Shown piece by piece: positions 11,677-64,000 of a DNA stretch of 64,000 bases. The stretch's first letter is position 1. Each line of letters starts with the position of its first letter. The stretch covers positions 573,009 to 637,008 of the forward strand of contig OZ246402.1 in assembly GCA_965230975.1 (NCBI GenBank), read 5' to 3'. Position numbers and translations under genes: made by a program. Origin of the DNA: an uncultured Candidatus Saccharibacteria bacterium. GTDB lineage: Bacteria > Patescibacteriota > Dojkabacteria > J137. Below the pieces are notes generated by a model. It was given only the letters and a program-made list of their open reading frames with translations. It was not told the DNA's origin and made no database searches.

Positions 11677-11739
11677 TTGTTTTTATATAATTATCTTCGC
11701 TATTCTAGTATACTGTGCATATTAAGTAAATTTATTTTT

Positions 11740-24524: not shown

Positions 24525-24544
24525 GATTGGTAATATTAAGGTAT

Positions 24545-29101: not shown

Positions 29102-30313
29102 CTAATCTTTAATATACTTTCTACCTTTAAGTTCTTCTGGAAAGTGCTCTTGATCCACCTTAGCATCTTTAAAGTCGTGAGCATATTTGTAGCCTTTACC
29201 ATAACCAAGCTCTTTCATAAGCTTTGTAGGCGCGTTTCTGATGTGTAATGGAACAGGTAAAGAACCATGTTTATAAACATCTTCTTTTGCGTGGCTAGAA
29301 GCCATATAAGCAGAGTTATCTTTAGGTGCTTTTGCCAAGTAAATTGCCAACTGACACAATGCAACATCGCATTCCGGCCTGCCAAGTTTTTGGCATGTTT
29401 CAAAAATAGTGTTAGCCAAAATAACAGCTTGTGGGTCTGCATTACCAATATCTTCAGATGCAAATCTAAGTAATCGTCTTGCAATGTAAAGAGGATCATC
29501 ACCTGCTTCTAGCATTCTAGTAATCCAATACACAGAGGCATTTGGGTCTGAATCTCTCATGGATTTATGCACAGCAGAAATTATATTGTAATGGTCTTCA
29601 CCTTTTCTTTCGTATTGTAAAAAGTTTTCTACCGTCTTTTTTAAAATATCTTCTGTAATCTTATTATCAACAGAAGCCATCAAAGCGCTTTCTAAAATGT
29701 TAGAAGCACTTCTTAAATCTCCATCACTAGCTTTTGCTATAAATTCTAAAACCTTTTTGCCGGCTTTTACTTCTAACCCTTCTTCTTTAACTTTACTTAT
29801 AAGCTTCTCTAGATAGTCTTGTACCTCTGTAACCGAATGCTTGTTTAGGGTGAATACCCTGCACCTAGAAAGTAAAGCTGGTATTAAACTAAAAGATGGA
29901 TTTTCTGTAGTGGCACCAATTAATGTAATAATTCCTTTTTCTACATAAGGGAGCAGAGCGTCTTGTTGAGATTTATTCCACCTGTGGATTTCGTCTAAAA
30001 ATAATATTGTCCTACTAGGAATTAATTCCATGTTACCGTTCTTTTGGTGAGCCATTGCCTTAACAATAATCTCTTTTAGCTTGTCTTTACCACTCATTAC
30101 TGCAGATAGTTTGTGAAAGTCTGCATGTATTTCTTTAGAGATTATGTAGGCTAGAGTAGTTTTGCCTGTCCCGGGTGGACCCCAAAATATTAAAGAGGGT
30201 AAGTTTTTTGTTTCTATAAATCTTCGAATAGGCATTCCTGGCCCGACTAAATGTTTTTGACCAATGTAGTCATCCAGTTTTGAAGGTCTATATTTTGATG
30301 CAATTGGTTCCAT
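29102..30313 (-). CDS. rarA: replication-associated recombination protein A (MgsA/RarA AAA+ ATPase)
   Basis: YRPSKLDDYIGQKHL, Walker A GPPGTGKTT, Walker B LFLDEIHRWNK, conserved C-terminal domain. Confidence 0.9.
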   Translation of the reverse strand: MEPIASKYRPSKLDDYIGQKHLVGPGMPIRRFIETKNLPSLIFWGPPGTGKTTLAYIISKEIHADFHKLSAVMSGKDKLKEIIVKAMAHQKNGNMELIPSRTILFLDEIHRWNKSQQDALLPYVEKGIITLIGATTENPSFSLIPALLSRCRVFTLNKHSVTEVQDYLEKLISKVKEEGLEVKAGKKVLEFIAKASDGDLRSASNILESALMASVDNKITEDILKKTVENFLQYERKGEDHYNIISAVHKSMRDSDPNASVYWITRMLEAGDDPLYIARRLLRFASEDIGNADPQAVILANTIFETCQKLGRPECDVALCQLAIYLAKAPKDNSAYMASSHAKEDVYKHGSLPVPLHIRNAPTKLMKELGYGKGYKYAHDFKDAKVDQEHFPEELKGRKYIKD

Positions 30314-43359: not shown

Positions 43360-43362
43360 ATT

Positions 43363-45633
43363 ATGGCAAATATATTAGAAGTAAAAAATCTATTTAAGGT
43401 TTACAACGTTAAGTCTGAAAATGTAGTTGTGTTAAGAAATATTAATCTTGAAATGCAAGATGGAGAATTCTTGATTCTTTTTGGCCCATCCGGTTGTGGA
43501 AAATCTACACTTTTAAATACAATTTTAGGTTTAGAAACTATCAGTAGTGGTAGTGTAAACTTACTTGGAAAACAAATTTCAAACCTCTCTCAAGACCAAT
43601 TAGCAGATATTAGAAAAAACAATGTAGGTATAGTTTATCAACAACCAAATTGGGTTAAATCTTTAAATGTTTTAGAAAATGTAGCTTTTCCATTATTAAT
43701 TAAAGGGATTAAAAGGGATGTAGCCTTAAAAAAGGCTAAAGAGAAGTTAGCATTGGTAGAAATGACAAATTGGACAGAATACTATCCGGTTGATTTATCT
43801 TCGGGTCAACAGCAAAAAGTTGCATTAGCCAGAGCATTAATTAATGAACCAAAAGTTTTAATAGCAGACGAGCCTACTGGTAATCTTGATTATAAAAGTA
43901 GCAATTCGTTAATGGGTATTTTTAGAGATTTATCTAATCAAGGTATCTCTATACTTTTAGTAACTCATAACCTTGTAAACTTAGATTATGCAGATAGAGT
44001 TGCCAGAATGTTTGATGGACAAATTGTAGAGTATATAGATGCAAAAAAAATATCTGAAAAAAAGCTAGATGAAATGTTGCACCCTACAGATGTTACCAAT
44101 AGTACATCTTATAAATTAAGTTTTAATATTAATAAACCTAAAAAAATTAACTTACTGGCAGATATTTTAAAAGGTCTATTATTACCACTTTTACTAGTAA
44201 AAACTGTAACTCTATTAGCTTTGTTTAGCGTGTTTAAATTATCAACTATTTTAAATAGAATAGGGTTTTATAAGTTATCTGAATCCATAGATTATTTAAT
44301 AAATATTATAGATAGAAGAGAGAATAATTCAGTAAGGTTTTCAGATGTAGCTGATATCTCTTTGAAAACTTTATTTACACACAGGGTTAGGACTTTTGTA
44401 ACAATTGGTGGTGTTGCTGTTGGTGTAAGCTTTACTGTATTGTTATTTTCTATTGGATTTGGATTTGAGCAAGTTGTTGTATCTAGAATTGCTAACTTAG
44501 AAGAATTAAATCAAGTTGATGTTGCACCACTCCCTACTAGTAATGTTTTTATAACAACTAATTCTGTGGAATCACTTAAAAATATTCCATCAATTAACAC
44601 TGTTTTACCTGTTATTGGTATTGCAGGCAAAACTAATTATGAAGGTGCTTTAGCAGATGTTGTTGTTAAGGGTGTTTCTACGAATTATATAAAAGATACA
44701 GGTTTAAAGATTACAGCAGGTAATGAGTTTTCTGCTGAATCAAATGATTTAAACTTTCAAAACATAGATGAAATTGTTCAAAATTATAAAGATAAGAATC
44801 AAATCGAAGATGATTCTTTAGGTGAAATAATTTTAGATTTACCAATTAAAGAAAGGCAAGCTGTTGTAAATGAGTCAATTTTGAATCTTTTCAATTTGCG
44901 TAAAGAAGATGCAATAGGTAAGACTTTTAAAGTTAAATTTATAGCTACTAATTCTTTAATAGGGAATAATTATAAAATATCTTCTACAGATACAGAGTAT
45001 ACAATTGTAGGTGTTGTTTCTTTTAAAGAAGAGAAGAATATTTACATTCCTGCAGAGGATTTATTGCCATTGGGTGTTCAAAGATTTTCAGAAGCCAAGT
45101 TAATTGTTTCTAATACGGACGATATTAGAAATGTTAGGGTTTCAACAGAGGCATTAGGTTTTAGGACTAGATCTATTCAAGATACTATTTCTCAGGTTAA
45201 TGCTGTGTTTGATAATGTTAGGTTAATTTTTGGAGCTGTTGGAGTCGTTGCTTTGTTTATAGCATCTTTAGGCATGTTTAATACTTTAACTGTTTCTTTA
45301 CTTGAAAGAATAAGAGAGGTTGGATTAATGAAAGCAATTGGTATGAAGTCTTTTGAAGTAAGGTCTTTGTTTTTAGCAGAGTCTACTATTATGGGCTTTT
45401 TTGGCGGTTTCTTTGGTATTATTTTAGGGGTTATTTTAGGTACGATCTTATCTTCTATTATATCTGCACTTTATATATCTAGAGGGGGAGAGTATGTAAC
45501 ATTGACTTTCTTACCACTAGAAGCAGCATTGGCAATATTGTTTATATCTGTATTGATTGGTATTTTGACAGGGTACTATCCTTCTGTAAGAGCAACAAGA
45601 ATATCTCCGTTAGAGGCATTAAGACACGAGTAG
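43363..45633 (+). CDS. fused ABC ATPase + FtsX-type permease (MacB-like)
   Basis: Walker A GPSGCGKST, LSSGQQQK, LIADEPT; then TM helix, large extracytoplasmic domain and a 3-TM FtsX-like C-terminus. Starts 4 nt after the giant gene. Confidence 0.8.
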   Translation: MANILEVKNLFKVYNVKSENVVVLRNINLEMQDGEFLILFGPSGCGKSTLLNTILGLETISSGSVNLLGKQISNLSQDQLADIRKNNVGIVYQQPNWVKSLNVLENVAFPLLIKGIKRDVALKKAKEKLALVEMTNWTEYYPVDLSSGQQQKVALARALINEPKVLIADEPTGNLDYKSSNSLMGIFRDLSNQGISILLVTHNLVNLDYADRVARMFDGQIVEYIDAKKISEKKLDEMLHPTDVTNSTSYKLSFNINKPKKINLLADILKGLLLPLLLVKTVTLLALFSVFKLSTILNRIGFYKLSESIDYLINIIDRRENNSVRFSDVADISLKTLFTHRVRTFVTIGGVAVGVSFTVLLFSIGFGFEQVVVSRIANLEELNQVDVAPLPTSNVFITTNSVESLKNIPSINTVLPVIGIAGKTNYEGALADVVVKGVSTNYIKDTGLKITAGNEFSAESNDLNFQNIDEIVQNYKDKNQIEDDSLGEIILDLPIKERQAVVNESILNLFNLRKEDAIGKTFKVKFIATNSLIGNNYKISSTDTEYTIVGVVSFKEEKNIYIPAEDLLPLGVQRFSEAKLIVSNTDDIRNVRVSTEALGFRTRSIQDTISQVNAVFDNVRLIFGAVGVVALFIASLGMFNTLTVSLLERIREVGLMKAIGMKSFEVRSLFLAESTIMGFFGGFFGIILGVILGTILSSIISALYISRGGEYVTLTFLPLEAALAILFISVLIGILTGYYPSVRATRISPLEALRHE

Positions 45634-48789: not shown

Positions 48790-49989
48790 TTATTCTATAG
48801 TGCTTTTATCAAATAAAGATATGGGTATTTCCTCTTCTTCGGCAGTTAGCAAAAACTCTTTAAGCATCTCTTTATGTTCGTCATTTTGCATATAAGACCA
48901 GTCTGTTGCCTCATTATAGTTAGATTTATCTTCACTAAAAAGATTAATCTCTACTCTATATTCATTAAGTTGGTAGTTTTTTATATATTTTGCAACCTCT
49001 ATTATGCCTTCTAATATAGCTTTCCTATCGTTTAATGATATAGTAATACGTTTTTCTTCATCGTTAGTATATTTTTGATAGAAAGAACCGGTGTTAATCC
49101 ACACATCTCTCGTTCGTAGTTCTTGAGCTGCACCTATGGCAATATCAGGTTGAATAAATTCAGATGCTCTAAAAATTTCTTGTGCATTAAACTGGGCATT
49201 TGGAGCCCATGGGAATCCTTGAATACCAAAACTATCTACCAATGTCTTATCTATATTAACTAAGTATGGAGCTAAGCTAATGTAGTCTCCATTGTCCCAT
49301 AACACATCATCAGGTTCATAAGTTGTAGCATTTAATAAAATACTACCTTTTGCGTTTGGAAAATACTTTTTTAAAGATCTTAAATATGTATTTACTACAA
49401 TCCCAAAATCAGAAGGCTCTGTGTCTTTATTATCCCAATTTGGAGTATTCGATTCTGGAAAGGGCACCCATGTCCCCATCATTTCATCTGTAACACCTCT
49501 TTGCTTTAGTTCAAAAAAGAATGTATCTAGTGGCTTATTGTAAACTCCATTTAAAAAATCTCTGTACCTCAATAAGTTGCCACCAGTATATGGCTCTACT
49601 ATTACAATAGGCTGTATATTATTTTGCTTAAATAAATCAAGCTTAGTAGCGATAGTAAAGGCAAGTTCCTGGGCTGAGGTTTGATCAAAAGGAATATGTG
49701 TAAAAAACATTAGTTTATTTGTAACATAGGAGTCACAAATATCTTGATATTCTGCTAATTTTATTAAGTTTTCGTCTTGTTGTGTATTTAAATTTAATGA
49801 GTCTTTTGTTGAGCATTTAGTAAACATTGGCAAATTATCACTTTTATCTTCTTTAACAATATTGGTTAAGGTTTCGTTTAAAATCTCTTTTATGGTTTGG
49901 TTACTAAATATATTGAAAGTGAAAATCACAAAACAAAAAACTGACATAATAATAATCCCGTTTGCAATAAGTAATTCTCTGTTTTTCAT
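48790..49989 (-). CDS. membrane-anchored hypothetical protein, last gene of the GT2 operon (possible polysaccharide-processing enzyme)
   Basis: 399-aa ORF with an N-terminal TM helix, 17 nt downstream of the GT2 gene. Confidence 0.55.
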   Translation of the reverse strand: MKNRELLIANGIIIMSVFCFVIFTFNIFSNQTIKEILNETLTNIVKEDKSDNLPMFTKCSTKDSLNLNTQQDENLIKLAEYQDICDSYVTNKLMFFTHIPFDQTSAQELAFTIATKLDLFKQNNIQPIVIVEPYTGGNLLRYRDFLNGVYNKPLDTFFFELKQRGVTDEMMGTWVPFPESNTPNWDNKDTEPSDFGIVVNTYLRSLKKYFPNAKGSILLNATTYEPDDVLWDNGDYISLAPYLVNIDKTLVDSFGIQGFPWAPNAQFNAQEIFRASEFIQPDIAIGAAQELRTRDVWINTGSFYQKYTNDEEKRITISLNDRKAILEGIIEVAKYIKNYQLNEYRVEINLFSEDKSNYNEATDWSYMQNDEHKEMLKEFLLTAEEEEIPISLFDKSTIE

Positions 49990-50006
49990 ATTTTAATAAT
50001 AAAATC

Positions 50007-51266
50007 TTAAATTCCTTCGCGTTTCCATACTTGCCAAACAACCTCTTCTTTTTTTAAGTACATTCGTAGACTCTTAAATAATGCCATGTATTCAATCCAG
50101 TCAAGAAAGTAAAATAGAGGCCATGTAAATGGAAACATTAATATAATTCCAATCCTAGGCTTTTCGTTGCTAAACAAGGCTGTAATTACGTAAGATAAAA
50201 ATATAAATAGAATACCAATGCTTATAGATACAAATTCAAGTGTAATTAAGCTGTAAATTAACAATACAGCTATAGCTATTGGCTCAAAAATAAGTTGTAT
50301 TTCTGTAAATAATGAAAATGGTAGTACAAAATAAGATAAAAAGAAATTGTGTGAATCTTCTGTAGAAAAAAACATTGATTTATACTTTTTAAATGTATCT
50401 AATCTTCCTTTTTTCCATCTAATTCTTTGAGAAATTAATCCTTTTACAGTAGAAGCACCTTCTGTATAGCAAACTACATTTTCTGCATAAGTACATTTGT
50501 ATCCAAAGTATCTAAGTCTCATAGACATTTCTATATCTTCGGTTTTGTTTACAGTATCAAAAAGCCCAATTTTATCAAAAACTTCTCTTCTAAAAGATGC
50601 GCAAGCACCTCCAAAAATATATTCAGCACCAAGTACTGCGTGTGTTCTCTTGTTGTAAAATCCAAAGTAGTATTCTAAGTATTGTGCTAGCCCCAACAAG
50701 GTTTTTGTATTGGTTACTTGTACATTCCCAACAACTCCAAATATTGTTTCATCTCTGTAATATTTCACTAAATTACTTATAGAACCATTTTTAAGTTTTG
50801 AATCCGCATCTATAGTTAAAACTATCTCTCCTTTAGCAAGTTGAATTCCAGTATTTAAAGCAACTCCCTTTCCACCATTTGTCTGATATTTGTAGGTGAT
50901 TTTTTCACCTAGCTCTTTATCTTTATTTTTTAAATCAGAGATGTATTTTTTCATTATTTTATCTGAGTTGTCTGTAGATCCATCGTTAACAACTATTATT
51001 TGTACATTCGAATATCCGTTATATAAGGCTGATTCAACTGTTTTTAAAATTCCAACTTCTTCATTCCAAGCAGGTATTACTACTGACACTAAATAAGGTT
51101 CTGGGTTTTCTAATGAACCATTTTTTTTATATTGCTTTATTAATCTTAATTTTTCTTTAATTGTGTACCACGGAGCTATTACTAAAAAGAGATAATTTTT
51201 AAGTAATACTAGGCTTACAAATAATGCTATTAATGATGTGAATATTATATAGATTGTATTTTCCAT
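50007..51266 (-). CDS. processive family-2 glycosyltransferase (PgaC/IcaA/cellulose-synthase-like)
   Basis: VVIPAWNEE, VVNDGSTD, TIDADS, and QRIRWKKG (the QxxRW processivity motif); flanking TM helices. Confidence 0.85.
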   Translation of the reverse strand: MENTIYIIFTSLIALFVSLVLLKNYLFLVIAPWYTIKEKLRLIKQYKKNGSLENPEPYLVSVVIPAWNEEVGILKTVESALYNGYSNVQIIVVNDGSTDNSDKIMKKYISDLKNKDKELGEKITYKYQTNGGKGVALNTGIQLAKGEIVLTIDADSKLKNGSISNLVKYYRDETIFGVVGNVQVTNTKTLLGLAQYLEYYFGFYNKRTHAVLGAEYIFGGACASFRREVFDKIGLFDTVNKTEDIEMSMRLRYFGYKCTYAENVVCYTEGASTVKGLISQRIRWKKGRLDTFKKYKSMFFSTEDSHNFFLSYFVLPFSLFTEIQLIFEPIAIAVLLIYSLITLEFVSISIGILFIFLSYVITALFSNEKPRIGIILMFPFTWPLFYFLDWIEYMALFKSLRMYLKKEEVVWQVWKREGI

Positions 51267-53871: not shown

Positions 53872-54972
53872 ATGTCAATTAATACTGATTTAGAACAAAG
53901 TAATTCGGTTAGACTAATAAGTAGCCAAATTAAAGAGCGTTCTTCAAATGTGGTTTTATACTCTGATTCAGATTTTAAATCTGCCCACAGTATTTATTGC
54001 CCTATAGGATTTGAGTCTGTTGCTGACTATTATGTTGCTCCTTACATGCGTAAGTTTGCAGACATTATCTTTGGTGTCGCACAAAATCCTTCTTATGGAT
54101 ATTCCCCTGAAAAGAATGAAATACATATTTACTTTTCAGAAATGGATTTATATAAAGGAATTTTAGCTTTGTTAGCTAATAATACTCGAGCATTAGAGGG
54201 TATTCTTAAAGCTCTAGAAATAGATCATACTCAAATTGAAGATACTATTTTAAGATACGTAAGGCTTCTCAATAGAATTACCTTTGATAATAAATATAAT
54301 TTGGATAATCAAGATAAACTTTTACTTGAAAGGATGGGTGCTTTTTTTAGTGGCCATCCGGATTTTATAGAATTGATTTTTGGTAATTCTGTAAATTACT
54401 CTGTTTATCATGAGGTAAATCACGCCAGGTTAGATGATTTGTATTTAAATGTAGCATATATTCCAAGATATAATTCTAGTTCTGCAAGAAATGCGATGCA
54501 AGTCAGTTATATAGGGTTTATGGATAAGTTTAATGAAATTGAGACTTATTTAATTGAAAATAATAACTTAACAGATTCCTATATTACTATTCTTCAACTA
54601 ACTAATCATGGTATGTTTAAGATTTTGTTAAGGGATATCTATTCTTATCCAGATAAGATAGATGCATTGTATACAAGTTATCTGGGTTCTTTACAGGAGC
54701 TGTTTAATTTTATGCAATTCGCAATTCTAAAAAAAGATTTAGCTAAAGATGAATTACAAAAGCAATTGATTAGATATTTTTGTGCATATATTGCAGATGT
54801 AATGTTTTTATTCCCTGATAATGCTATTGTTAGAAGATACTTGGATTTGGCAAATTCTTTAGATGCAAATCAAATAAATTTGTTTTTGAAAGAGTTAGTC
54901 GCCCTAATGAATAAGGAGTCGTTTGATAAGTTTGTAGATACTCATTTTAGATGGCTACAAAAAGAGGATTAA
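53872..54972 (+). CDS. hypothetical protein with an HExxH motif
   Basis: 366-aa ORF containing YHEVNHA; divergent from the XRE gene. Confidence 0.5.
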   Translation: MSINTDLEQSNSVRLISSQIKERSSNVVLYSDSDFKSAHSIYCPIGFESVADYYVAPYMRKFADIIFGVAQNPSYGYSPEKNEIHIYFSEMDLYKGILALLANNTRALEGILKALEIDHTQIEDTILRYVRLLNRITFDNKYNLDNQDKLLLERMGAFFSGHPDFIELIFGNSVNYSVYHEVNHARLDDLYLNVAYIPRYNSSSARNAMQVSYIGFMDKFNEIETYLIENNNLTDSYITILQLTNHGMFKILLRDIYSYPDKIDALYTSYLGSLQELFNFMQFAILKKDLAKDELQKQLIRYFCAYIADVMFLFPDNAIVRRYLDLANSLDANQINLFLKELVALMNKESFDKFVDTHFRWLQKED

Positions 54973-55457
54973 TTTTCGCTATACTGATCAAGTTCCTCCT
55001 GTGTTATAGAAAACATTTGTCTTATCATATCTAGTTGAGATCTTAATACCATAAAATTTATACTGTTAGATTCCATTTCTTCAGCACTTAATATTAAAGG
55101 CATTTCTGGGTTATGTTCTTCGTAATCTGTTCTAATTTCTCCGATATGTGGTATCTTACCTATTTGTTCTATGGTTTTTAAAATTCCACCTGCTAGCCAT
55201 TGTGAGCAGTTTAACGGGCTATTTACATATTCTTCGAGGCTTAAACCTGACCTGATATTTGGATATATTCCAAGTTCTTTAAGATGGTTTAAGACTAGGT
55301 ATATTTTGTTTAGAAGTATTTCTTTATCCATTGGTCTTAAAGGTAGTGTTGGGTCCTCACTATAACTAGTAATGTATGCCATTACTTCTACACATAAATC
55401 TCTTAGCTCTTTACTTTTGTGGTCGCTATTAAAGAAATATTTATCAGGTTTGAACAT
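54969..55457 (-). CDS. hypothetical protein
   Basis: 162-aa ORF. Confidence 0.55.
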   Translation of the reverse strand: MFKPDKYFFNSDHKSKELRDLCVEVMAYITSYSEDPTLPLRPMDKEILLNKIYLVLNHLKELGIYPNIRSGLSLEEYVNSPLNCSQWLAGGILKTIEQIGKIPHIGEIRTDYEEHNPEMPLILSAEEMESNSINFMVLRSQLDMIRQMFSITQEELDQYSEN

Positions 55458-55537
55458 GAATTTATTCTCAAAAAATATTGTGTGGATTATATACTATTTT
55501 TCTGAAGTTTAAAGAATTGTACATTTAATTGGCAGAT

Positions 55538-55582
55538 CTCGTAACATTCGACTACATTTCATTTGTCTCATTAACTACGGAG
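55538..55582 (+). repeat. 45-nt direct repeat, copy 1
   Basis: CTCGTAACATTCGACTACATTTCATTTGTCTCATTAACTACGGAG; 44/45 identical to 57210-57254. Confidence 0.9.
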
Positions 55583-55709
55583 AGCTTCGGATGTTTTTCC
55601 AATTTGACCCGTGGCAAGAAATATTATTGATTGACCAATAGATATTAATTCTACACTCTATAGATTTATTAATAGTGTGTTATGATCTATCATATTTCAT
55701 TCTCAAAGT

Positions 55710-56783
55710 ATGAAACAAATGGTTCATTTAAATGAAAACATGCGTTCTAGTAGAGGCATTGTTAGAATGTTTAATCAAATACCCACACAGGAATTATTAG
55801 AAGCTCTCTCGAAATATCCTGATTTAATACCACCTGGTGCAGAGATTGTAGCAACCAATTTTGGACAGATAAATTTGGTCTACATTGTTAGAGTTCCAGG
55901 TATAAAGATCCCTAAACGAGTAATTATTATACCCAGGCCAGATAAAGAGACAAATCAGGTTGAGCAAGACACAATGGAAGATTTTTACGGTTTAAAAGAA
56001 GTGTATGAATCTTTTGTGGCATTTAAATCTGAAGGTAAGATTCAAGCTACAGCTACCATACCTATACCTAGACCTTTAGGACTTATTTGCTCTCAATTTT
56101 TAACTGTAATGGTTAATGAATTCGCGGGCAGTCAAGAAGGTTATTTTGGTTCTGAAGAAACCTTTCCTGCTTTTGTTTCGGGAGGAACAGGTGGTAATAC
56201 ATATTTAGGTTTATCCTGGATAGTGAACCCAAGTTTCACTAATGAGACAGACTTATTAAGACGTCAGACTACAAGTATTGCTAATAGGTTGACTCATCAT
56301 CTGGGTAACAATGGAATTGATAGTGAATATAGTAGTATCTCTCATGCGATAGCTATCTCTCATATTGAAGCTCTAGTCAAAGTTTGGTTACTTACAGGAA
56401 AATATCCTCTAAAATACTGTCCTTCTGCTGGAGATGGTGTTATGTTAAATAAAGATTATGATTCAAAAAGTCATCCTGACATAGCTAATGTGGATATTAA
56501 TTTAATTACATTAAGAGGCGGACTATCTCGGGTAGTAGATTCGCAAGCTTTTATTCAATTCTTAAGAGGACTAAAGGATAAGCCAATCGTTTATTGCGAT
56601 TTTAAAGGTTCGGATTTAGTCATAGTTCAACCTAATAATGCTAAATTATATGAATACTGGGGAGGAGAGGAAGTTAGTGTTTTTAGTGATAAACAAATTA
56701 GAGAAGGTATTGAAAGGGCATTTATGAATTACTTTGGAAACGATTCTTTGCATTATCTGCAAAGAATTTTGGCTGAAGTATAA
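55710..56783 (+). CDS. hypothetical protein (possibly a divergent kinase-like fold)
   Basis: 357-aa ORF. NFGQINLVYIV loosely resembles the glycine-loop strand of APH/ChoK-type kinases, but no clear catalytic motif is present. Confidence 0.55.
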   Translation: MKQMVHLNENMRSSRGIVRMFNQIPTQELLEALSKYPDLIPPGAEIVATNFGQINLVYIVRVPGIKIPKRVIIIPRPDKETNQVEQDTMEDFYGLKEVYESFVAFKSEGKIQATATIPIPRPLGLICSQFLTVMVNEFAGSQEGYFGSEETFPAFVSGGTGGNTYLGLSWIVNPSFTNETDLLRRQTTSIANRLTHHLGNNGIDSEYSSISHAIAISHIEALVKVWLLTGKYPLKYCPSAGDGVMLNKDYDSKSHPDIANVDINLITLRGGLSRVVDSQAFIQFLRGLKDKPIVYCDFKGSDLVIVQPNNAKLYEYWGGEEVSVFSDKQIREGIERAFMNYFGNDSLHYLQRILAEV

Positions 56784-56808
56784 AAAGCTCTATCAGTTTT
56801 TAATTTTA

Positions 56809-57108
56809 TTAAGCTTCTCTGTCGATTTCTTTATTTCCTAGTTCAGATTCTTGAATGTTTTTAATATCAACAGTTCTTCTAGCTAAGTACAGAGAACCAA
56901 CGCTATGTTGAAGCATTTTAATTAAACCATCAGGAGTATGGCTGCTATCGATTTCACCCTGCCCGTTAATTCCTACATAAATATTCCCATCAGTTTGAAC
57001 AAAATATACTGTATTCTTCTCTATAGCTAGTTTTTTAGCATTCGCAAGTCTTTCTTCATATGTTTCAGGAACAGTTTGATCTATTAAATCCTCAATGTGG
57101 TAGTTCAT
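56809..57108 (-). CDS. hypothetical protein
   Basis: 99-aa ORF with a good upstream promoter. Confidence 0.55.
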   Translation of the reverse strand: MNYHIEDLIDQTVPETYEERLANAKKLAIEKNTVYFVQTDGNIYVGINGQGEIDSSHTPDGLIKMLQHSVGSLYLARRTVDIKNIQESELGNKEIDREA

Positions 57109-57500: not shown

Positions 57501-58211
57501 TTATGATTCTGGAGTATCGCCAACCAGTAATCTTAATTGGGAGATAATTTGGTCCAATTCCCCATCTTTATTAGAAATATAATTAGAAAATAAATGTCTT
57601 TTTGCAAGAATAGCTCGTGCATTTCTAATTCGACCCTGAAATTCAACCTCACTTTCTCCTCGATCTCTTAGTGAAAGTCTACTTGAAATTACCTCTAAAG
57701 CTTTTTCTACTCCATTCTCACCTTCAATTTCTTCAGTAGTAATAGGACTTATAAAGCAATCATAAATTGGAATATTAAGTCTCTTGAAGATATCTTTCAA
57801 AAGTAGAGCTCCATCAACGTCAATATCTAAGATTAAACGGTTTCCATTGTTCAAAGCCACTAGTATATCATCTAAGCTTGTTCCATAGTATCCTTGCCCA
57901 TATTTACTCCATTCTAATAGCTTATTTTTATTTACTTGGTCTAGGAAGTCACTTTCATCTAAGGAATGATAATTAGATTCATTAGGATTCATACTTTTAG
58001 TCGTCGTTCTATTAACTTTAGTATATCCTCGATTGCTTGCCATAAGTTTTTCAATTATAGAACTTTTACCAACTCCATTAGGGCCAGTAATCAAAATAAC
58101 TTGAAAGTTATGTTCACCTAGGCGTTCAGATAAAGTTAGAAAATTAATCTTATCTACAGTTTGGTTCTGTCCCCATTTATAATTTCTATCTAAGTCCATA
58201 ATTATCATCAA
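57501..58211 (-). CDS. guanylate-kinase-like P-loop NMP kinase
   Basis: P-loop GPNGVGKSS, TTK...ESNYHSLDESDF, and LEWSKYGQGYYGT parallel Gmk motifs; carries a ~35-aa N-terminal extension. Confidence 0.6.
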   Translation of the reverse strand: MMIIMDLDRNYKWGQNQTVDKINFLTLSERLGEHNFQVILITGPNGVGKSSIIEKLMASNRGYTKVNRTTTKSMNPNESNYHSLDESDFLDQVNKNKLLEWSKYGQGYYGTSLDDILVALNNGNRLILDIDVDGALLLKDIFKRLNIPIYDCFISPITTEEIEGENGVEKALEVISSRLSLRDRGESEVEFQGRIRNARAILAKRHLFSNYISNKDGELDQIISQLRLLVGDTPES

Positions 58212-59073
58212 TTAAATGTAATCTGCGTTCAATTTCTTCTATATCAATAGGAAACTCTATCATCCCTTCGTGCTCAACACTTATACTCGAGAGAGCATTT
58301 GCAAATTCAATAGATTCTTTTAATGCTGCAGATTGATTTAATTTAAATATAAAACCTGCTCTCCAAACATCTCCTGCTCCAGTTGGATCTATAGAATTTG
58401 TACGATAGGTTGGAAAGATTTGTTCTAATTCAGCAGTAACTAATTTGACTCCGCCTGCTCCCAAGGTTTCAATTACTACTTTTTTATTGTCAGTTAATTC
58501 TTTGGGAGACATCTTCAATCTTGACTGAATTCTTTCCCATTCGGCATGATTAGCAATTACAATACTAGAATTAGTTATACCACTTAATAATTCCTCGTCA
58601 GATAAATTATGTAATATCATTCCTGGATCATACATATAAGTACATTTTGATTCGATTAATATTCTTTGAACTGTGAGAAATAAACTTTTATCAATAGGTG
58701 AGAGTATTGTAAAGTCAGTTGATAAGAAAGGTGGAAGTAATTCCGGATCAATTAGTCTAGATAGTCTATCCTCAAATCTTAACCAGTCTTGGTGACCATC
58801 AGAGTATGTATTTACTTCTCCTTCTGAAGTAGAAGATCTTTCAAATACAAATAAATTTGCAACATCAACACCTACTTCAGCTAAAGTATTTCTCAGAACT
58901 TCTCCATTAGATCCTATCGCGCCAATTAAACTTATTTTATTTTCTGATAGGCGAGCTAAAGTATGAGCTATTGTGAATCCAGTGCCTCCTAGAAAAATTT
59001 CTGAAGATATATTTCTGTCTAAATAGTTATTTTTTACAAATCCAACTGAACCAATAATATTTATATGTGCCAT
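58186..59073 (-). CDS. PfkB-family sugar/nucleoside kinase
   Basis: DPTGAGDVWRAGF ATP-binding motif. ORF is open to 59115, but the ATG at 59073 (MAHINIIGSVG) sits 1 nt after the upstream stop. Confidence 0.8.
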   Translation of the reverse strand: MAHINIIGSVGFVKNNYLDRNISSEIFLGGTGFTIAHTLARLSENKISLIGAIGSNGEVLRNTLAEVGVDVANLFVFERSSTSEGEVNTYSDGHQDWLRFEDRLSRLIDPELLPPFLSTDFTILSPIDKSLFLTVQRILIESKCTYMYDPGMILHNLSDEELLSGITNSSIVIANHAEWERIQSRLKMSPKELTDNKKVVIETLGAGGVKLVTAELEQIFPTYRTNSIDPTGAGDVWRAGFIFKLNQSAALKESIEFANALSSISVEHEGMIEFPIDIEEIERRLHLIDDNYGLR

Positions 59074-59074
59074 A

Positions 59075-59662
59075 CTATTTTTTATCACCAAATATCCTTC
59101 TGAATTCTTTATCAACTAACTTTCTTATTAATTCGGCTTTGCTAACTTCAAGATTTGTAGAGAGTTGTTCCATTTGTTTAAGTGTATTTGTTTTTAAAAC
59201 TACATTAAATCTTCTCTTTGGGGGATCAAGTTCGTCGATGTATTCAATAATCACATCTTCTAATTTATCTAAGTCCTTATATCTTCTAACGGTAACGAAG
59301 TCTTCTCCATACGAAAGAAGTGTTTCTGGAAATTCATTATATTTATCCTCATGAACAAGACAAAGTACAGGAATTTTATTTTCTAATGCTAATATTGTCT
59401 GAAAGAATACAGTTCTTGATTTATCAGTGAAGTATGCAACAGCAAAATCAATAGATCTAATTTGTTTTTGCGTCCCATCTACAATCGAATCTGTTTTATT
59501 CCTAACAGTTTTCTTGATAGCTGGTGGATATTCGTCAACAAATGCTGGATTATACATAGATACTCCTTGTGCACGAATTATATTTGCTATTTTTCTATAT
59601 ATTTCTATATTCAGATCTATATTTTTTATTGAAGCAAATAATCCAAATCTTTTAGCTTTCAT
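59075..59662 (-). CDS. nucleoside 2-deoxyribosyltransferase-like Rossmann domain fused to a C-terminal ribbon-helix-helix
   Basis: N-terminal FGLFASI...IRSIDFAVAYF...IPVLCLV pattern; C-terminal RFNVVLKTNTLKQMEQLSTNLEVSKAELIRKLV is CopG/RHH-like. Confidence 0.4.
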   Translation of the reverse strand: MKAKRFGLFASIKNIDLNIEIYRKIANIIRAQGVSMYNPAFVDEYPPAIKKTVRNKTDSIVDGTQKQIRSIDFAVAYFTDKSRTVFFQTILALENKIPVLCLVHEDKYNEFPETLLSYGEDFVTVRRYKDLDKLEDVIIEYIDELDPPKRRFNVVLKTNTLKQMEQLSTNLEVSKAELIRKLVDKEFRRIFGDKK

Positions 59663-60453
59663 AGTTTATAAAAATATTTAAGAACAATATTAAATAATCT
59701 TTTAGGTAAGTGACATTTACAAAATGCCAGAACTTTATCCCTATAGCTAACAAACTGAGATCTATTAGATTCAAAAATTATTGACTCTACGAGCTTAGCT
59801 ACATCTTCAGCTTTATTTCTGTCACTAAAAAAGTTTCTAAATCGTATTTGCCATTCCTCATATAGACTTTTGTATATACTATTTTCTATATTAATTGTTT
59901 CAATTATATTTTTGCCAAAACTACTTTTCACAGCACCTAAATAAATATTAGCTACTTTTATTTCAGATTCCTCGTTTAGAATGTCCAGAGTTTTACTAAA
60001 TGCCAGTTTAGATATTTCGTAATAGCCAAATGTAGGTATGTCTAATAATGAGCCTAAGGCTGCTAAATTTATTACTATTCCTTGGTTACTACGCAATTTG
60101 GGAATCAGAGATTTTAATAATTCTGTTGGACCGAAATAATTTATTTCAAATTGCTTACGAATATTCTCTATACTTAAGTCTTCGATAGTCCCTCTAAAAC
60201 CAACACCCGCATTGTTTATAAATATGTCTACTTGTTCATCTTTAAGTAAATTTATAACTTTCGGTATGCTATTAGAGTTACCTAAATCAACTTCAATAAA
60301 TTTATAATTGGACGGTTGTGAATCTATATTATTTCTACCTAATCCGATTATCTCCACATCATTTCTACTAGACAGCAAGGAAACAATAGAGTATCCAATG
60401 CCTGAACTGACTCCTGTGATAATGATTTTTTTCCTTTTATTTGATTGATTCAT
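59659..60453 (-). CDS. short-chain dehydrogenase/reductase (SDR)
   Basis: TGVSSGIG cofactor motif, NNAG, catalytic YEISK (YxxxK). Confidence 0.85.
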   Translation of the reverse strand: MNQSNKRKKIIITGVSSGIGYSIVSLLSSRNDVEIIGLGRNNIDSQPSNYKFIEVDLGNSNSIPKVINLLKDEQVDIFINNAGVGFRGTIEDLSIENIRKQFEINYFGPTELLKSLIPKLRSNQGIVINLAALGSLLDIPTFGYYEISKLAFSKTLDILNEESEIKVANIYLGAVKSSFGKNIIETINIENSIYKSLYEEWQIRFRNFFSDRNKAEDVAKLVESIIFESNRSQFVSYRDKVLAFCKCHLPKRLFNIVLKYFYKL

Positions 60454-61381
60454 CTTTAGCTAAACTTAGTAATAATCCAGTTGAAATATTGTTGTTACTT
60501 GGAAAAATTCTATTTATTTTTAAATATTCGCAGATTGCAAATATATTCATAAGCGCCTTATCTGCTGCCCACATATAATAAGGTTCGTCTGGGTAAAGAG
60601 GCATTCTATCTTCATAACTTAAACTAATTAGTTTCTCGTAAAGAGGTTTTAATTCTTCAACAGTTGTTTCGAACTTATGAGCACCAGTATTGTCAGAAGG
60701 TATTAGATTAAGATTCATTGCTTTAAAGAAATCTATAATGTTTGTACTTCCATAAACTAACAGTTCAGGTTGATTCTTTCCCTCAGTTAGAGATTTTAAC
60801 TGTTCTTTGACATAATCATAAGCTGCATTTACTTCCTCTTCACTAGGATGATGTGTTTTAGAGAATCTTTCTTGTAGATAATAAGTCCCTGTTTTAAATA
60901 AGAATGTTTGGAATATTTCTTCATCTTTTCCAATAACGACCTGAACACTTCCTCCTCCAATATCTGAAACTGCAATCACTTTACCGGGAAAATCTTTAGA
61001 AACTGAATGAAAGTAGACTTTTGCTTCATCGTCATGAGAAAGTGTTATTAATGAAATCTCAGTCTCTTGTTTTATCTTTTTTAAAACCTCATCTGCATTT
61101 TTTGCCTTTCGAATAGCTTCTGTGGTAACTCCAACATATTTGTTAACTCCAAATTCATTCATTTTTTCTTTGAAAAGTTTAAGAGCCTCAATTGTTTTAT
61201 CAATAGATTTCTCAATGATTGTATTATCAGTTTTATCAAGATCTCTTCCAAGAACAGTTAATTGTTTATCTTTATAAACTAATTCTGAATTGTAATTCGA
61301 ATCAAATTCTCTAATTTCGAACTTTGATTTTAATGTTCCAACATCTATCACAGCAACTTTTTTCTTTTTATTTTCTGACAT
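60437..61381 (-). CDS. Ppx/GppA-family phosphatase (ASKHA fold, short form)
   Basis: VAVIDVGTLKSKF and VSDIGGGSVQVV phosphate-binding loops; 314 aa, so only the two N-terminal domains. Confidence 0.7.
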   Translation of the reverse strand: MSENKKKKVAVIDVGTLKSKFEIREFDSNYNSELVYKDKQLTVLGRDLDKTDNTIIEKSIDKTIEALKLFKEKMNEFGVNKYVGVTTEAIRKAKNADEVLKKIKQETEISLITLSHDDEAKVYFHSVSKDFPGKVIAVSDIGGGSVQVVIGKDEEIFQTFLFKTGTYYLQERFSKTHHPSEEEVNAAYDYVKEQLKSLTEGKNQPELLVYGSTNIIDFFKAMNLNLIPSDNTGAHKFETTVEELKPLYEKLISLSYEDRMPLYPDEPYYMWAADKALMNIFAICEYLKINRIFPSNNNISTGLLLSLAKDESIK

Positions 61382-62666
61382 AAAAATAATTTTTTAATAA
61401 GTAATAATTTTGAGATAGATTAGATCGTAAAAAGCTACCACTAACAATATTAACGGTTTTTACATCTTCAATATCTTTTATTGTTTCTAAATCTACACTT
61501 CTATCTATTGTAATCGAAACAGGTCCCTTATATGCGTAGTTAATCATTTTGTGAGCTCGATTAAAATTAGATACTCGTTCAGTGTGATTCTTTGATTGAA
61601 GACAGACTAATGTTTCGTCTTTAATAAATTTTTCCCAAGGAAATAACTCATCAATTAAATCTTTAACGTCAAGGCTATAGTTTATTTTTTCAATAGTTAA
61701 TTTCTCGGTTTCAAATTTATCATAATTATCTCGGTTAATATGAAGAAAGATCTTACTACTTATATCTGTTTCTATATCTAAAAATTTGATCATTTGTTCA
61801 TACGATTCTTCTGATTTTGCAAATATGTGATAGTGAACATTAATGTGCGATGATTTCTCCCTTATATTTTTTATCAATTCTAATGTTAGATTAAGATTAG
61901 TGGATTGTTCGACAAATCCATCGGTGATATCTATATGTAAAAAATCAATTTTAGCTAATATTGCCTCATCGAGTGTATCAATATTTTGCTGAACAATATC
62001 TTGTATGGCATATCCAACTTGGTGATTTGAGATAATACTTTCTTTGTATAAAAGTTTAGCAATTGTGGACATTTTATTAGCATCTGTATTTTCAAATTCT
62101 GTTTTAGTAGCGGCTTTTATATTAGATTGTATATCAAAGCCATAAATATCAAGATCGATATACTTATAAAGATTTTCAGCTGCAATTCCACCTGCGAGAA
62201 AGATATTTTTTATATTGAGACTTTTAACTAGAGTATTTACTTTATCAAAACCTATTTCTTTTCCTGTACCTCCAACAAAGGATTTATCTAAAATATAGTT
62301 ATCTGCGTTTTTATTAGGTTTATCACTTTCAGATATAAGTACTTGAAATATTTCAACACTATCTCCATAGACACCTTTTAGATTGTCAATAATCTCATTT
62401 GAGTTAGAGTAATGTAGTTGAACAGCATCAAACTCCATGGAATTAATTAATTCTATAAGTGTCTCTAATTTTGTTTCCTTAGTAACCAAAACAGATTTGG
62501 TATCGGGATAAAACATTTTTAATTCCTTTATACAAATCTTGATCAGATCTAATCTTTTAAAATCATTTTCTGAAATAAGGTGAAACCCAAGATAATCTAT
62601 ACCTAGTTTTCCTGCAGTTCTTGTTTCGAAAATATTTTTTATATCGCAAAATTTAATTTTCTTCAT
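61368..62666 (-). CDS. fusion of a TrpF-like (phosphoribosylanthranilate-isomerase-like) barrel and a ribulose-phosphate-3-epimerase-like barrel
   Basis: N-half: KFCDI, AVQLH, GGTGKEIGFD, FLAGGI and GFDIQSNIK align with TrpF including the catalytic Cys and Asp. C-half: FLHIDITDGFVEQ and VSGSFL resemble RPE. Confidence 0.55.
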   Translation of the reverse strand: MKKIKFCDIKNIFETRTAGKLGIDYLGFHLISENDFKRLDLIKICIKELKMFYPDTKSVLVTKETKLETLIELINSMEFDAVQLHYSNSNEIIDNLKGVYGDSVEIFQVLISESDKPNKNADNYILDKSFVGGTGKEIGFDKVNTLVKSLNIKNIFLAGGIAAENLYKYIDLDIYGFDIQSNIKAATKTEFENTDANKMSTIAKLLYKESIISNHQVGYAIQDIVQQNIDTLDEAILAKIDFLHIDITDGFVEQSTNLNLTLELIKNIREKSSHINVHYHIFAKSEESYEQMIKFLDIETDISSKIFLHINRDNYDKFETEKLTIEKINYSLDVKDLIDELFPWEKFIKDETLVCLQSKNHTERVSNFNRAHKMINYAYKGPVSITIDRSVDLETIKDIEDVKTVNIVSGSFLRSNLSQNYYLLKNYFYVRK

Positions 62667-63352
62667 AGTAGATTATTTATAACATTCAACATGTCTGATT
62701 TGTAATCAGCTAATATAAACTTTGACCCAGCATTTAGTGCAAATTCCCTATCAATTAGATCATTATCACCAATATAATAATCCATCTTTACTCCAGAAAC
62801 ACTGTTCAGCTTATAAGCACCAAAACTATCAGGCTTATCTTTTAATATTTGACCTTCATATAAATCTTCTTCACCAATAATTACATCAAAAAAATCAATT
62901 AGATTGGCTTTAATTAATAGTGAAGTCACAATAGTCTTTCTAGTTGAACTAACAATTCCAATCTTTATATTTTTACTTTTAAGTGCAATTAATGCTGGAG
63001 TCAGATTCAGAGCAATTTGCTCTAATAAAGAATAGGTTTCTTCTTCAAGAATTGCTTTTATAGTTGCACTTTCTTTTAAACCCATAATTCTTTTTACTAT
63101 TTCATCTTCATTTTTTTCATTAAAATAAATACTGATCTGTTCTTTCATTCGAAAGTTGTTATCTAGAAATCCTTTCTTAATTCTTCGATAACTGTCAAAT
63201 CTTTCTCGGAGATTTGGTTCATAAGGAAGTAAATCTTCCAATAGAAAATTTATCCTCAAATCTTTTAAAGCAGATTCCCATCCTCTCTTATGAAAGCTGG
63301 TAGATTTTGCTATTGTTCCATCGAAATCAAATACAATAAACATATTAATCAA
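62663..63352 (-). CDS. HAD-IA family phosphatase
   Basis: Motif I FDFDGTIA, motif II GIVSST, motif IV GDNDLID. Confidence 0.8.
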   Translation of the reverse strand: MINMFIVFDFDGTIAKSTSFHKRGWESALKDLRINFLLEDLLPYEPNLRERFDSYRRIKKGFLDNNFRMKEQISIYFNEKNEDEIVKRIMGLKESATIKAILEEETYSLLEQIALNLTPALIALKSKNIKIGIVSSTRKTIVTSLLIKANLIDFFDVIIGEEDLYEGQILKDKPDSFGAYKLNSVSGVKMDYYIGDNDLIDREFALNAGSKFILADYKSDMLNVINNLL

Positions 63353-64000
63353 TATAATTTTTTAATAAACTAATTATTTTTTGTTTCTCTTTATCAAAAA
63401 CTCCTTGACGATTAGTATAACTAAATTTTTTATAAGTACCTGTGAAATTACTTGTGTAAGTAACTATTGCCTTTTCTAATACTTCGGGATTTACTCCTCC
63501 ATGATATGGTCTGATGAGATGATGATACCTATTAGTATTTTTAAATGATACAACAGCTAGAAAAGCTTCTTTAATATTTTTTGGATACAAATCTAAGAAG
63601 GTTTGAATTGTCTTTCCAGTTGTGGTCGAATCATCTAGGATTAAGACCTTATCAAAGCCTTGAAAATAGTTCTCATTATAAAAAGGTGGTAAAGAGTCAT
63701 CTAGATCTTGAACATAATTTGAACTTCCAGTTGAGTAGTTTGAAAGTGAGCAAATAATCTGACTTTCTAATGATTTATTTATGGTCATTCTAAAAGCATT
63801 AACAGCAAACGGAAGTTCCATTCCACCATATGCGAAACTCACAAGAAGAGTGTTAGATGGAATATATTGATCCGATACAACTTTAGCAAAATTTATAATT
63901 TTGTAAGGATGGCTACATTCTCTTATCTTCCTAATAATGTTGTTTTCCCAATGCTCACTAAATAGAGATCGAGAAGAGATCTCACTACAAAATCTCTTGT
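63345..64000 (-). CDS. type I phosphoribosyltransferase (5' end lies outside the window)
   Basis: PRPP-binding motif VLILDDSTTTGKT. By hand translation the frame stays open upstream of the track's GTG start all the way to position 64000. Confidence 0.7.
   Translation of the reverse strand, partial: KRFCSEISSRSLFSEHWENNIIRKIRECSHPYKIINFAKVVSDQYIPSNTLLVSFAYGGMELPFAVNAFRMTINKSLESQIICSLSNYSTGSSNYVQDLDDSLPPFYNENYFQGFDKVLILDDSTTTGKTIQTFLDLYPKNIKEAFLAVVSFKNTNRYHHLIRPYHGGVNPEVLEKAIVTYTSNFTGTYKKFSYTNRQGVFDKEKQKIISLLKNYID

Follow-up and report, generated by a model that had tools for sequence, protein, structure and literature searches.

The 64,000-nucleotide stretch of contig OZ246402.1 analysed here (hereafter the window; ~30% GC) derives from an uncultured Candidatus Saccharibacteria bacterium, and carries on its minus strand a gene encoding a single polypeptide in which a TrpF-like barrel, related to phosphoribosylanthranilate isomerase (PRAI), is joined to a second barrel related to ribulose-5-phosphate 3-epimerase (RPE); it is an undescribed fusion inside an undescribed gene cassette, built from recognisable members or relatives of two well-known families. 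Judging from its sequence, the protein has two intact-looking active sites, one of the Cys/Asp acid–base isomerase type and one of the His/Asp metal-dependent α-proton epimerase type, with the phosphate-binding end retained in both barrels and remodelled in the second. That its gene is always found within the same rare accessory cassette hints at a pathway, so far undescribed, for the modification of pentose phosphates, and not at tryptophan or central sugar metabolism. We tentatively propose, at somewhat short of even confidence, a bifunctional enzyme that would convert a C1-substituted ribose-5-phosphate to a 2-ketose and then epimerise it at C3, in a pathway fed by a phosphoribosyltransferase (PRTase).

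The open reading frame (ORF), for which the initial annotation gave no strand, is intact, running from an ATG start through 432 codons to its stop; a plus-strand reading of the same interval was ruled out, its translation being riddled with stops. All of the motifs quoted in the initial annotation are present in the protein (KFCD, residues 5–8; GFDIQS, 176–181; LHIDITDGF, 243–251; VSGSF, 408–412). An AlphaFold2 model of the entire fusion takes the form of two barrels (pLDDT 92, pTM 0.91) and, together with the profile comparisons given below, bears out the earlier description of two (β/α)8 barrels of the ribulose-phosphate-binding superfamily, one TrpF-like and one RPE-like. In a family alignment of 38 homologues, set against the predicted structure, every invariant residue, in either domain, is found at the C-terminal end of a predicted β-strand or directly after it, on the catalytic face of the barrel. 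Active-site residues are kept in both, as seen in the family alignment and by hhalign mapping.

The fusion is not an artefact of assembly, as ~40 full-length homologues of like length (415–439 aa, 34–97% identity), drawn from independent assemblies, were retrieved from 5.8 billion protein clusters. Where names are given, these are ‘hypothetical protein’ (candidate division WWE3, Gribaldobacteria) or, in one JGI entry, ‘phosphoribosylanthranilate isomerase’. The family is very rare: fusions of 420–436 aa account for about a dozen of the 28 proteins that an exhaustive search of 1.84 billion representatives gave at E ≤ 1e-3, with ~20 clusters at 50% identity among these representatives, and a survey of 185,579 species genomes (one genome per species) gave seven loci, all in metagenome-assembled genomes (MAGs) of the Patescibacteria/candidate phyla radiation (CPR) labelled Saccharibacteria, Shapirobacteria or ‘Patescibacteria group’; the ~30% GC of the window would suit an organism of this kind.

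The N-terminal domain matches Pfam PRAI (PF00697) with 54.8 bits against a cut-off of 22.7, a match made by all 38 homologues, and hhalign aligns it with bona fide TrpF/TrpCF proteins over 179 columns (98.5% probability, E 2.5e-15). Foldseek, run with the two-domain model, returns 5lhe, 4wui, 1nsj and 1lbm (E 1e-8 to 1e-6, target TM 0.73–0.81). HMMER alignments place Cys7 on Cys7 of the Thermotoga maritima enzyme (1dl3), and Asp127, within YILDKS, on D379 of Escherichia coli PRAI (1pii); hhalign also matches the two to the invariant Cys and Asp of the TrpF set, which in TrpF serve as general base and general acid, respectively. The catalytic cysteine assigned to KFCD by the initial annotation agrees with these alignments, but the catalytic aspartate it assigned to GFDIQS is not correct: the equivalent of E. 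coli D379 and T. maritima D126 is D127, and D178 sits instead in the GxDxxS phosphate-binding motif of strand 8. Conservation of C7 is at least 90% across the 38 homologues, with D127, GGT 132–134, G159–G160 and G176/D178/Q180 all invariant.

Compared with TrpF itself (T. maritima, 1NSJ/1LBM; the C-terminal domain of E. coli 1PII), the domain shares the fold, the strand-1 Cys, the QLH of strand 4, the strand-6 Asp, the GGxG loop, and the GG and GxDxxS of strands 7 and 8. It differs in having only ~18–25% identity, in being fused to an RPE-like barrel without trp gene context, and in carrying family-specific polar motifs on strands 2 and 3, GFHLISxxDxxR and LVTKE, where TrpF has the hydrophobic GFVF and VGVF; around strands 1–3, the polar residues K10, H29, S32, D35, R38, K63 and E64 are invariant. 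Against the NCBIfam TrpF equivalog models, the fusion scores 48–66 bits, 3- to 20-fold below cut-offs that range from 172 to 819 and none of which is reached (best scores: 66.5 bits against 380, 57.4 against 212, 54.6 against 234); by this measure the N-terminal domain is not an orthologue-level TrpF. A GFHL strand-2 motif also occurs in a stand-alone 240-aa ‘TrpF’ of Sorangium sp. So ce1014 (CP150356.1), whose gene adjoins TrpA-like, Rieske/haem-oxygenase-like and ATP-grasp genes, not a full trp operon, and which may be another non-canonical use of the TrpF barrel.

For the C-terminal half, the signal from any single sequence is weak, whereas profile analysis at the level of the family bears out its earlier description as RPE-like. 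Sequence searches of the PDB, with the protein or with family profiles, find TrpF and, only marginally, RPE (E 0.08–1.2). Pfam RPE (PF00834) is nonetheless matched at E ≤ 0.01 by 26 of the 38 homologues (best E 5e-7), with the divergent member P0064 scoring 35.6 bits over profile positions 11–197 of 198, and a profile of the C-terminal domain, when used in an exhaustive hidden Markov model search, recovers canonical stand-alone RPEs over their full length, which themselves score 108–184 bits on PF00834. By hhalign, the family aligns with E. coli Rpe plus these recovered proteins over 174 columns (97.9% probability, E 4.8e-13), a match that is conclusive only against this small RPE alignment, since against E. 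coli Rpe as a single sequence only strands 2–3 are aligned (19% probability); by BLASTP, the similarity to one canonical RPE extends over 208 aa at 25% identity (E 1e-8). As Foldseek with the whole model cannot tell which barrel matches RPE, the C-terminal domain was predicted separately, and the resulting barrel is most similar to solved RPE structures.

The D-x-x-H-x-D motif, strand-3 His, strand-4 His and strand-7 Asp are all conserved in the C-terminal domain. LHIDITDGF, previously read as an RPE-type metal and substrate motif, does indeed place H244 and D246 on E. coli H34 and D36; the phosphate-site GS predicted near the C-terminus is likewise kept, as G410–S411 of strand 8. H244, D246, H280 and D388 are invariant or nearly so in the family, and their equivalents are the four metal ligands of RPE, including both acid/base aspartates; R364, R389, N311, N314, D333 and D336 are invariants specific to the fusion family. 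Set beside the known D-ribulose-5-phosphate and D-allulose-6-phosphate 3-epimerases of PF00834 (1TQX, 2FLI, 3CU2, 3CT7), the domain is best regarded as a divergent and probably metal-dependent form of RPE, its anion-binding end having been remodelled, and, on its sequence features, is not an ordinary ribulose-5-phosphate epimerase.

The fusion gene takes third place in a series of minus-strand genes that overlap one another (Table 1). The stop codon of the preceding HAD phosphatase gene overlaps its start codon (ATGA), and the following Ppx/GppA-family gene overlaps its 3′ end by 14 nt; an arrangement consistent with translational coupling. A synteny table compiled with tblastn finds the same core—PRTase-like protein, HAD phosphatase, fusion, Ppx/GppA, short-chain dehydrogenase/reductase (SDR) and a 195-aa protein—in every independent locus, members of only 30–40% identity included, and two far more distant members of higher GC keep the same cassette. 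Genes for a family 2 glycosyltransferase (GT2), resembling the glycosyltransferases of exopolysaccharide and teichuronic acid, and for an APH-like protein adjoin the cassette in every locus with enough flank, whilst genes for a cytidylyltransferase-like protein, a PfkB-family sugar kinase (loci L003, L005 and L012 only) and a P-loop kinase are variable; the last matches the ribose-1,5-bisphosphokinase PhnN, which forms phosphoribosyl pyrophosphate (PRPP), but weakly (25 bits, NCBIfam).

The first gene of the core is cut by the end of the window, where its frame stays open even though a 165-aa ORF is predicted from a GTG at 63842; the full 427-aa gene is present on L005, a contig of the same organism. 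The encoded protein carries the PRPP-binding motif of type-I phosphoribosyltransferases, VLILDDSTTTGKT, with a weak match to Pfam Pribosyltran; its N-terminal ~250 aa match no Pfam or NCBIfam family, and a PDB sequence search gave no useful match. This PRTase-like family equals the fusion in rarity, occurs on the same contigs and is syntenic in all loci, as is the Ppx/GppA gene, the product of which is among the most conserved members of the cassette (52–70% identity, against 32–57% for the fusion). The 195-aa protein is also syntenic in all fusion loci (39–78% identity). Its C-terminal ~40 aa resemble a ribbon-helix-helix, with a weak CopG match the only result of a PDB sequence search, and for its N-terminal ~145 aa neither Pfam, NCBIfam nor PDB sequences gave a match; the protein is possibly a ligand-sensing regulator of the cassette.

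Beyond the window end, L005 continues after the full PRTase-like gene with genes for a 183-aa protein, an RfaE-domain-II-like protein of the cytidylyltransferase family, an APH/choline-kinase-like protein and GT2. The 183-aa protein has no Pfam or NCBIfam match of its own, but its positional counterparts in other loci match Pfam ASCH; a 169-aa protein also matches no Pfam or NCBIfam family. PADLOC found no defence-system model to fit the cassette, only generic P-loop noise. Upstream of the cassette, positions 1–2400 of L005 hold a gene with a faint match to SMODS (a CBASS-type nucleotidyltransferase), a DUF1508 gene and an S24 peptidase gene (LexA/CI-like), a stretch that could represent a mobile or defence island at the edge of the cassette.

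Variant architectures bear on how the two barrels are related. P0064 (719 aa) is a single-chain HAD–TrpF–RPE triple fusion within the same cassette. Two loci, one from a Shapirobacteria MAG (L014) and the other a metagenome contig (L019), have the domains split over adjacent genes in reversed order: the RPE-like domain lies at the C-terminus of a ~660-aa protein, preceded by a domain with weak similarity to nucleoside phosphorylases/nucleosidases (PNP_UDP_1, SAH and AMP nucleosidase), and the TrpF-like domain at the N-terminus of the next gene product (385–393 aa), followed by a C-terminal tail of ~190 aa. That the L014 tail might be a degenerate RPE barrel was not supported (probability 1%). 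An SDR gene lies nearby in L019, such that an SDR accompanies the TrpF-like and RPE-like genes in both variants of the cassette; the neighbours in L014 are a pyridoxal-phosphate-dependent decarboxylase, NTP_transf_2, a class I/II aminotransferase and an amidohydrolase, with a similar Ppx/GppA copy (61%) ~5 kb from the split genes. The variants indicate a recurrent set—the TrpF-like and RPE-like barrels together with an SDR and an enzyme of the N-glycosidic/ribosyl bond—and, as physical fusion is not obligatory, they favour a pathway link over a composite active site. The idea that both domains serve one pathway is strengthened by the conserved fusion, the triple fusion and the split but adjacent genes; that they would take consecutive steps on the same phosphosugar, as initially suggested, is what we infer.

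To our knowledge, the only chemistry known for TrpF, HisA and PriA barrels is the Amadori rearrangement of PRTase-made N-(5-phosphoribosyl)amines. This, with the gene logic of TrpD to TrpF and HisG to HisA, is the ground for a model built on an N-ribosylamine, one which accounts for the strictly co-occurring PRTase-like protein. The latter would transfer ribose-5-phosphate from PRPP onto an amine, its N-(5-phosphoribosyl) product most probably being the substrate of the N-terminal barrel; there, Cys7 and Asp127 would act as base and acid, respectively, to open the ring and convert the aldose to a ribulose-type 2-ketose in an Amadori-type reaction. The RPE-type barrel, using H244, D246, H280 and D388 as ligands, would invert C3 of the 1-substituted 1-deoxy-ribulose 5-phosphate to give the xylulose configuration, after which the SDR could reduce the C2 ketone, the HAD phosphatase take off the 5-phosphate, and the GT2, APH-like kinase and nucleotidyltransferase incorporate or decorate the product. 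Extended to a complete PRPP-dependent CPR pathway—in which a novel PRTase N-ribosylates an amine (perhaps a nucleotide base or one derived from an amino acid), the TrpF-family barrel carries out the Amadori step, the RPE-family barrel epimerises C3 of a ketosamine 5-phosphate, and SDR and HAD finish an amino-pentitol-type block for a surface glycoconjugate or nucleotide-like metabolite—the scheme is one we regard as possible but doubtful.

Several points weigh against our proposal. The PRTase-like assignment comes from one motif plus sub-threshold Pfam matches; the Ppx/GppA protein, conserved across the cassette, and the kinases have no role in the scheme; and the GT2, APH-like and cytidylyltransferase-like context would fit a route from a sugar phosphate to a nucleoside-diphosphate (NDP)-sugar or pentitol equally well. 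In addition, the window protein scores 18.7 bits on PF00834, below the cut-off of 21.1; the cushion methionines of RPE (DxMDG, HLM, MSV) are lost, being now T/S248, F282 and Q357; and two Gly-rich loops have gone, PGFGGQ (after strand 6) becoming SKxHxxR with the invariant R364, and DGG (after strand 7) becoming DRS with the invariant R389. Given this score and these losses, the reaction of the C-terminal domain could differ from 3-epimerisation.

The same features would suit a protein of single activity, in which one barrel, likeliest the divergent RPE-like half, is non-catalytic and serves in ligand binding or as a scaffold, and the tail of the split TrpF-like proteins in L014 and L019, having no detectable RPE similarity, indicates that appendages can be non-RPE. 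We nevertheless think this improbable: the four RPE ligand positions and eight further polar residues on the catalytic face are invariant or nearly so down to ~35% identity, conservation that is unexpected in a pseudoenzyme, and other architectures retain the RPE-like domain as a fusion partner in its own right.

The initial annotation had also proposed assays of PRA isomerase and ribulose-5-phosphate epimerase activity. The two halves are homologous to these enzymes but are not the bona fide pair; the TrpF equivalog scores are low, the Met cushion and two loops of RPE are lost, and trp genes are missing from the neighbourhood. A tblastn search of the window and 17 related loci with E. coli TrpA, TrpB, TrpC, TrpD and TrpE gave matches to the PRAI half only, and these on the fusion gene, with trpA, trpB, trpD, trpE and the indole-3-glycerol-phosphate synthase gene not found in any of them. 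A housekeeping fusion of a genuine tryptophan-pathway isomerase with a genuine epimerase would explain the matches to both Pfam families and the JGI name of one homologue. It would do so for a protein that scores far under every TrpF equivalog cut-off, has lost RPE signature loops, is always inside the same accessory cassette and is too rare for such a role (7 of 185,579 species genomes, ~20 clusters), in bacteria that generally lack amino-acid biosynthesis; we give it very little credence.

Ordinary pentose phosphates offer a more serious alternative, though one that we still consider unlikely. Here, the TrpF-like barrel would convert ribose 5-phosphate (R5P) to ribulose 5-phosphate (Ru5P), a reaction with which the Cys/Asp acid–base pair is chemically compatible, and the RPE-like barrel Ru5P to xylulose 5-phosphate (Xu5P); from Xu5P or Ru5P, the SDR would by reduction form a pentitol phosphate of the arabinitol, xylitol or ribitol type, for activation by the cytidylyltransferase-like protein and transfer by GT2, as pentitol phosphate or NDP-sugar, to a surface glycopolymer. 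The GT2 gene, with its kinship to exopolysaccharide and teichuronic-acid glycosyltransferases, and the APH-like (anomeric-kinase-type) gene flank the cassette wherever the flank suffices; the RfaE-domain-II-like gene is present in some loci; and PfkB, HAD and SDR are enzyme classes of ADP-heptose synthesis. Set against this, the strictly co-occurring PRTase-like protein is left without a role, the cytidylyltransferase-like, PfkB and P-loop kinase genes are variable rather than core, and the invariant polar residues around strands 1–3 of the N-terminal barrel (K10, H29, S32, D35, R38, K63, E64) suggest that the substituent recognised is something more than a hydroxyl. Furthermore, we know of no TrpF/HisA-family enzyme that acts on an O-sugar, and the organism has a transketolase, so that housekeeping Rpi and Rpe are presumably already there.

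The kinases, where they occur, bring a bisphosphate route into consideration, with ribose-1,5-bisphosphate (R15P), derived from PRPP or from nucleosides by a phosphorylase and a PfkB ribose-1-phosphate kinase, converted by the N-terminal barrel to ribulose-1,5-bisphosphate and by the C-terminal barrel to xylulose-1,5-bisphosphate (XuBP), the C1 phosphate of which a CbbY-like HAD would remove. The match of the PfkB protein to ribose-1-phosphate kinases is full-length, that of the P-loop kinase to PhnN is weak, and the HAD protein falls in the β-phosphoglucomutase-type subfamily, which includes the XuBP phosphatase CbbY. R15P and methylthioribose-1-phosphate isomerases use a Cys/Asp pair, the extra invariant cations (K10, R38 and K63; R364 and R389) could bind a second phosphate, and the variant loci fuse the RPE-like domain to a nucleoside-phosphorylase/nucleosidase-like domain. 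Yet most loci lack the PfkB and P-loop kinase genes, neither TrpF nor RPE barrels offer a precedent for the chemistry, the neighbourhoods showed no RuBisCO gene and no other obvious sink, and the SDR, GT2 and PRTase-like proteins are unaccounted for; we judge this route to be quite improbable.

Our preferred N-ribosylamine reading has its closest parallel in histidine and tryptophan biosynthesis, where a PRTase feeds an Amadori isomerase (HisG/HisE/HisI then HisA; TrpD then TrpF; PriA). The cassette likewise pairs the gene of a PRPP-dependent transferase with that of a (β/α)8 isomerase and, as in the histidine case, has a phosphohydrolase in the same operon, HisE there and Ppx/GppA here. Its transferase is unrelated, however (~427 aa, with a type-I PRPP loop), and its RPE-like, SDR, HAD and GT2 members have no counterpart in those pathways. 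ADP-heptose synthesis (GmhA–HldE–GmhB–HldD) and the CDP-ribitol and CDP-arabinitol routes match the neighbourhood in enzyme classes, namely isomerase, PfkB, HAD, RfaE-domain-II-like, SDR and GT2. They differ in that the isomerase/epimerase of the cassette is TrpF-like plus RPE-like and not of the SIS or SDR type, that its nucleotidyltransferase and PfkB are not constant, and that PRTase-like and Ppx/GppA proteins belong to its core. Known TrpF and Rpe fusions, such as E. coli TrpC–TrpF (1PII), similarly join a ribulose-phosphate-binding barrel to the enzyme of a neighbouring step, and differ from the window protein in the partner domain. A survey of archaeal fusions lists TrpF–TrpB, TrpF–TrpC and Rpe–transketolase (the last, with the transketolase N-terminus, in Thaumarchaeota) with no mention of a TrpF–RPE architecture (PMC11237513). 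Full-text literature searches found neither this architecture nor any TrpF-like enzyme in CPR.

Much of bacterial diversity is accounted for by CPR/Patescibacteria, which have tiny genomes and very few assigned biosynthetic pathways; in this setting, two textbook barrels, TrpF and RPE, have been reused beside a PRTase-like gene and outside the context of tryptophan or the pentose phosphates, so that the fusion illustrates how, in nature, domains are recruited within the ribulose-phosphate-binding barrel superfamily. Were the N-ribosylamine/ketosamine chemistry true, it would widen the reaction space of both enzyme families—the Amadori step being the first such use of TrpF outside tryptophan and histidine biosynthesis, and ketosamine 5-phosphate epimerisation a new substrate class for the RPE family—and would imply a lineage-specific metabolite or envelope component in host-dependent organisms. 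Should only ordinary pentose phosphates be isomerised and epimerised, the fusion would amount to a non-orthologous replacement.

Table 1. Location of the fusion gene, its domains and residues, the cassette genes and other features. Positions are those of the window unless a locus or residue numbering is given.
Feature	Position	Strand	Size or residues	Basis or remark
TrpF-like/RPE-like fusion gene	61368..62666	minus	432 aa + stop	ATG start
TrpF-like (β/α)8 domain	62052..62666	minus	residues 1–205	Pfam PRAI, hhalign
Cys7, catalytic position	62646–62648	minus	Cys7	structure alignments, family alignment
Asp127, catalytic position	62286–62288	minus	Asp127	1pii alignment
Phosphate motifs of TrpF-like domain			GGTG 132–135, GG 159–160, GFDIQS 176–181	family alignment
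RPE-like (β/α)8 domain	61371..62021	minus	residues 216–432	
Metal/catalytic ligand equivalents	61935–61937; 61929–61931; 61827–61829; 61503–61505	minus	H244; D246; H280; D388	
E. coli Rpe residues mapped to fusion			D31 to D241, H34 to H244, D36 to D246, H68 to H280, H92 to H309, D177 to D388, G199 to G410	hhalign
PRTase-like protein, C-terminal part	63345..64000	minus	~218 aa of ~427 aa	cut by window end
HAD-family phosphatase, β-phosphoglucomutase-type subfamily	62663..63352	minus		Pfam HAD_2 61.9 bits; NCBIfam TIGR02009
Ppx/GppA-family phosphohydrolase	60437..61381	minus		Pfam 113 bits; NCBIfam exopolyphosphatase 142 bits, below cut-off
SDR	59659..60453	minus		Pfam adh_short 76 bits
195-aa protein (u195), C-terminal CopG-like ribbon-helix-helix	59075..59662	minus	195 aa	weak RHH_3 and CopG matches
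PfkB-family sugar kinase (ribokinase/ribose-1-phosphate-kinase-like)	58186..59115	minus		Pfam PfkB 89.7 bits; NCBIfam
Guanylate-kinase-family P-loop kinase	57501..58211	minus		Pfam 59 bits; NCBIfam guanylate kinase 91 bits against cut-off of 160
Split variant loci	L014 8618–11817; L019 1826–4982			TrpF-like and RPE-like domains on adjacent genes
Stand-alone ‘TrpF’, Sorangium sp. So ce1014	L018 8001–8723		240 aa	
ORFs without Pfam match	53872–54972; 54969–55457; 55710–56783; 56809–57108			within 53872–57108
GT2, processive type	50007–51266	minus	419 aa	chitin-synthase/PgaC-like matches
Protein adjoining the GT2	48790–49989	minus	399 aa	no Pfam match
DUF2341 protein, then ABC ATPase–MacB–FtsX chain	39208–45633	plus	1383 aa; 756 aa	
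MgsA/RarA AAA+ ATPase	29102–30313			
YhcG/DUF1016 nuclease and Y-family DNA polymerase	24527–26829	plus; minus		convergent
Transketolase	11677–13581	plus		full-length, three-domain
tRNA-Gly (TCC)	314–385	plus		

Elsewhere in the window, the transketolase implies that the organism possesses at least part of the non-oxidative pentose phosphate pathway; a canonical rpe was not found in these 64 kb, which say nothing on the genome as a whole. Directly downstream of the cassette lie several ORFs of 99–366 aa without a Pfam match, two of which (55710–56783 and 56809–57108) match nothing in NCBIfam either. The processive-type GT2 and the 399-aa protein that adjoins it (48790–51266) form a second envelope-glycan locus ~7 kb from the cassette. 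Further away, a 1383-aa protein with DUF2341 and fibronectin-III/purple-acid-phosphatase-N domains is likely, from its domain content, to be a surface protein, and is followed by a 756-aa single chain that combines an ABC ATPase, a MacB-type periplasmic domain and an FtsX permease. The window also encodes an MgsA/RarA AAA+ ATPase, and a YhcG/DUF1016 PDDEXK nuclease convergent with a Y-family (ImpB/UmuC-type) DNA polymerase; tRNA-Gly (TCC) is both its sole tRNA and its sole Rfam match.

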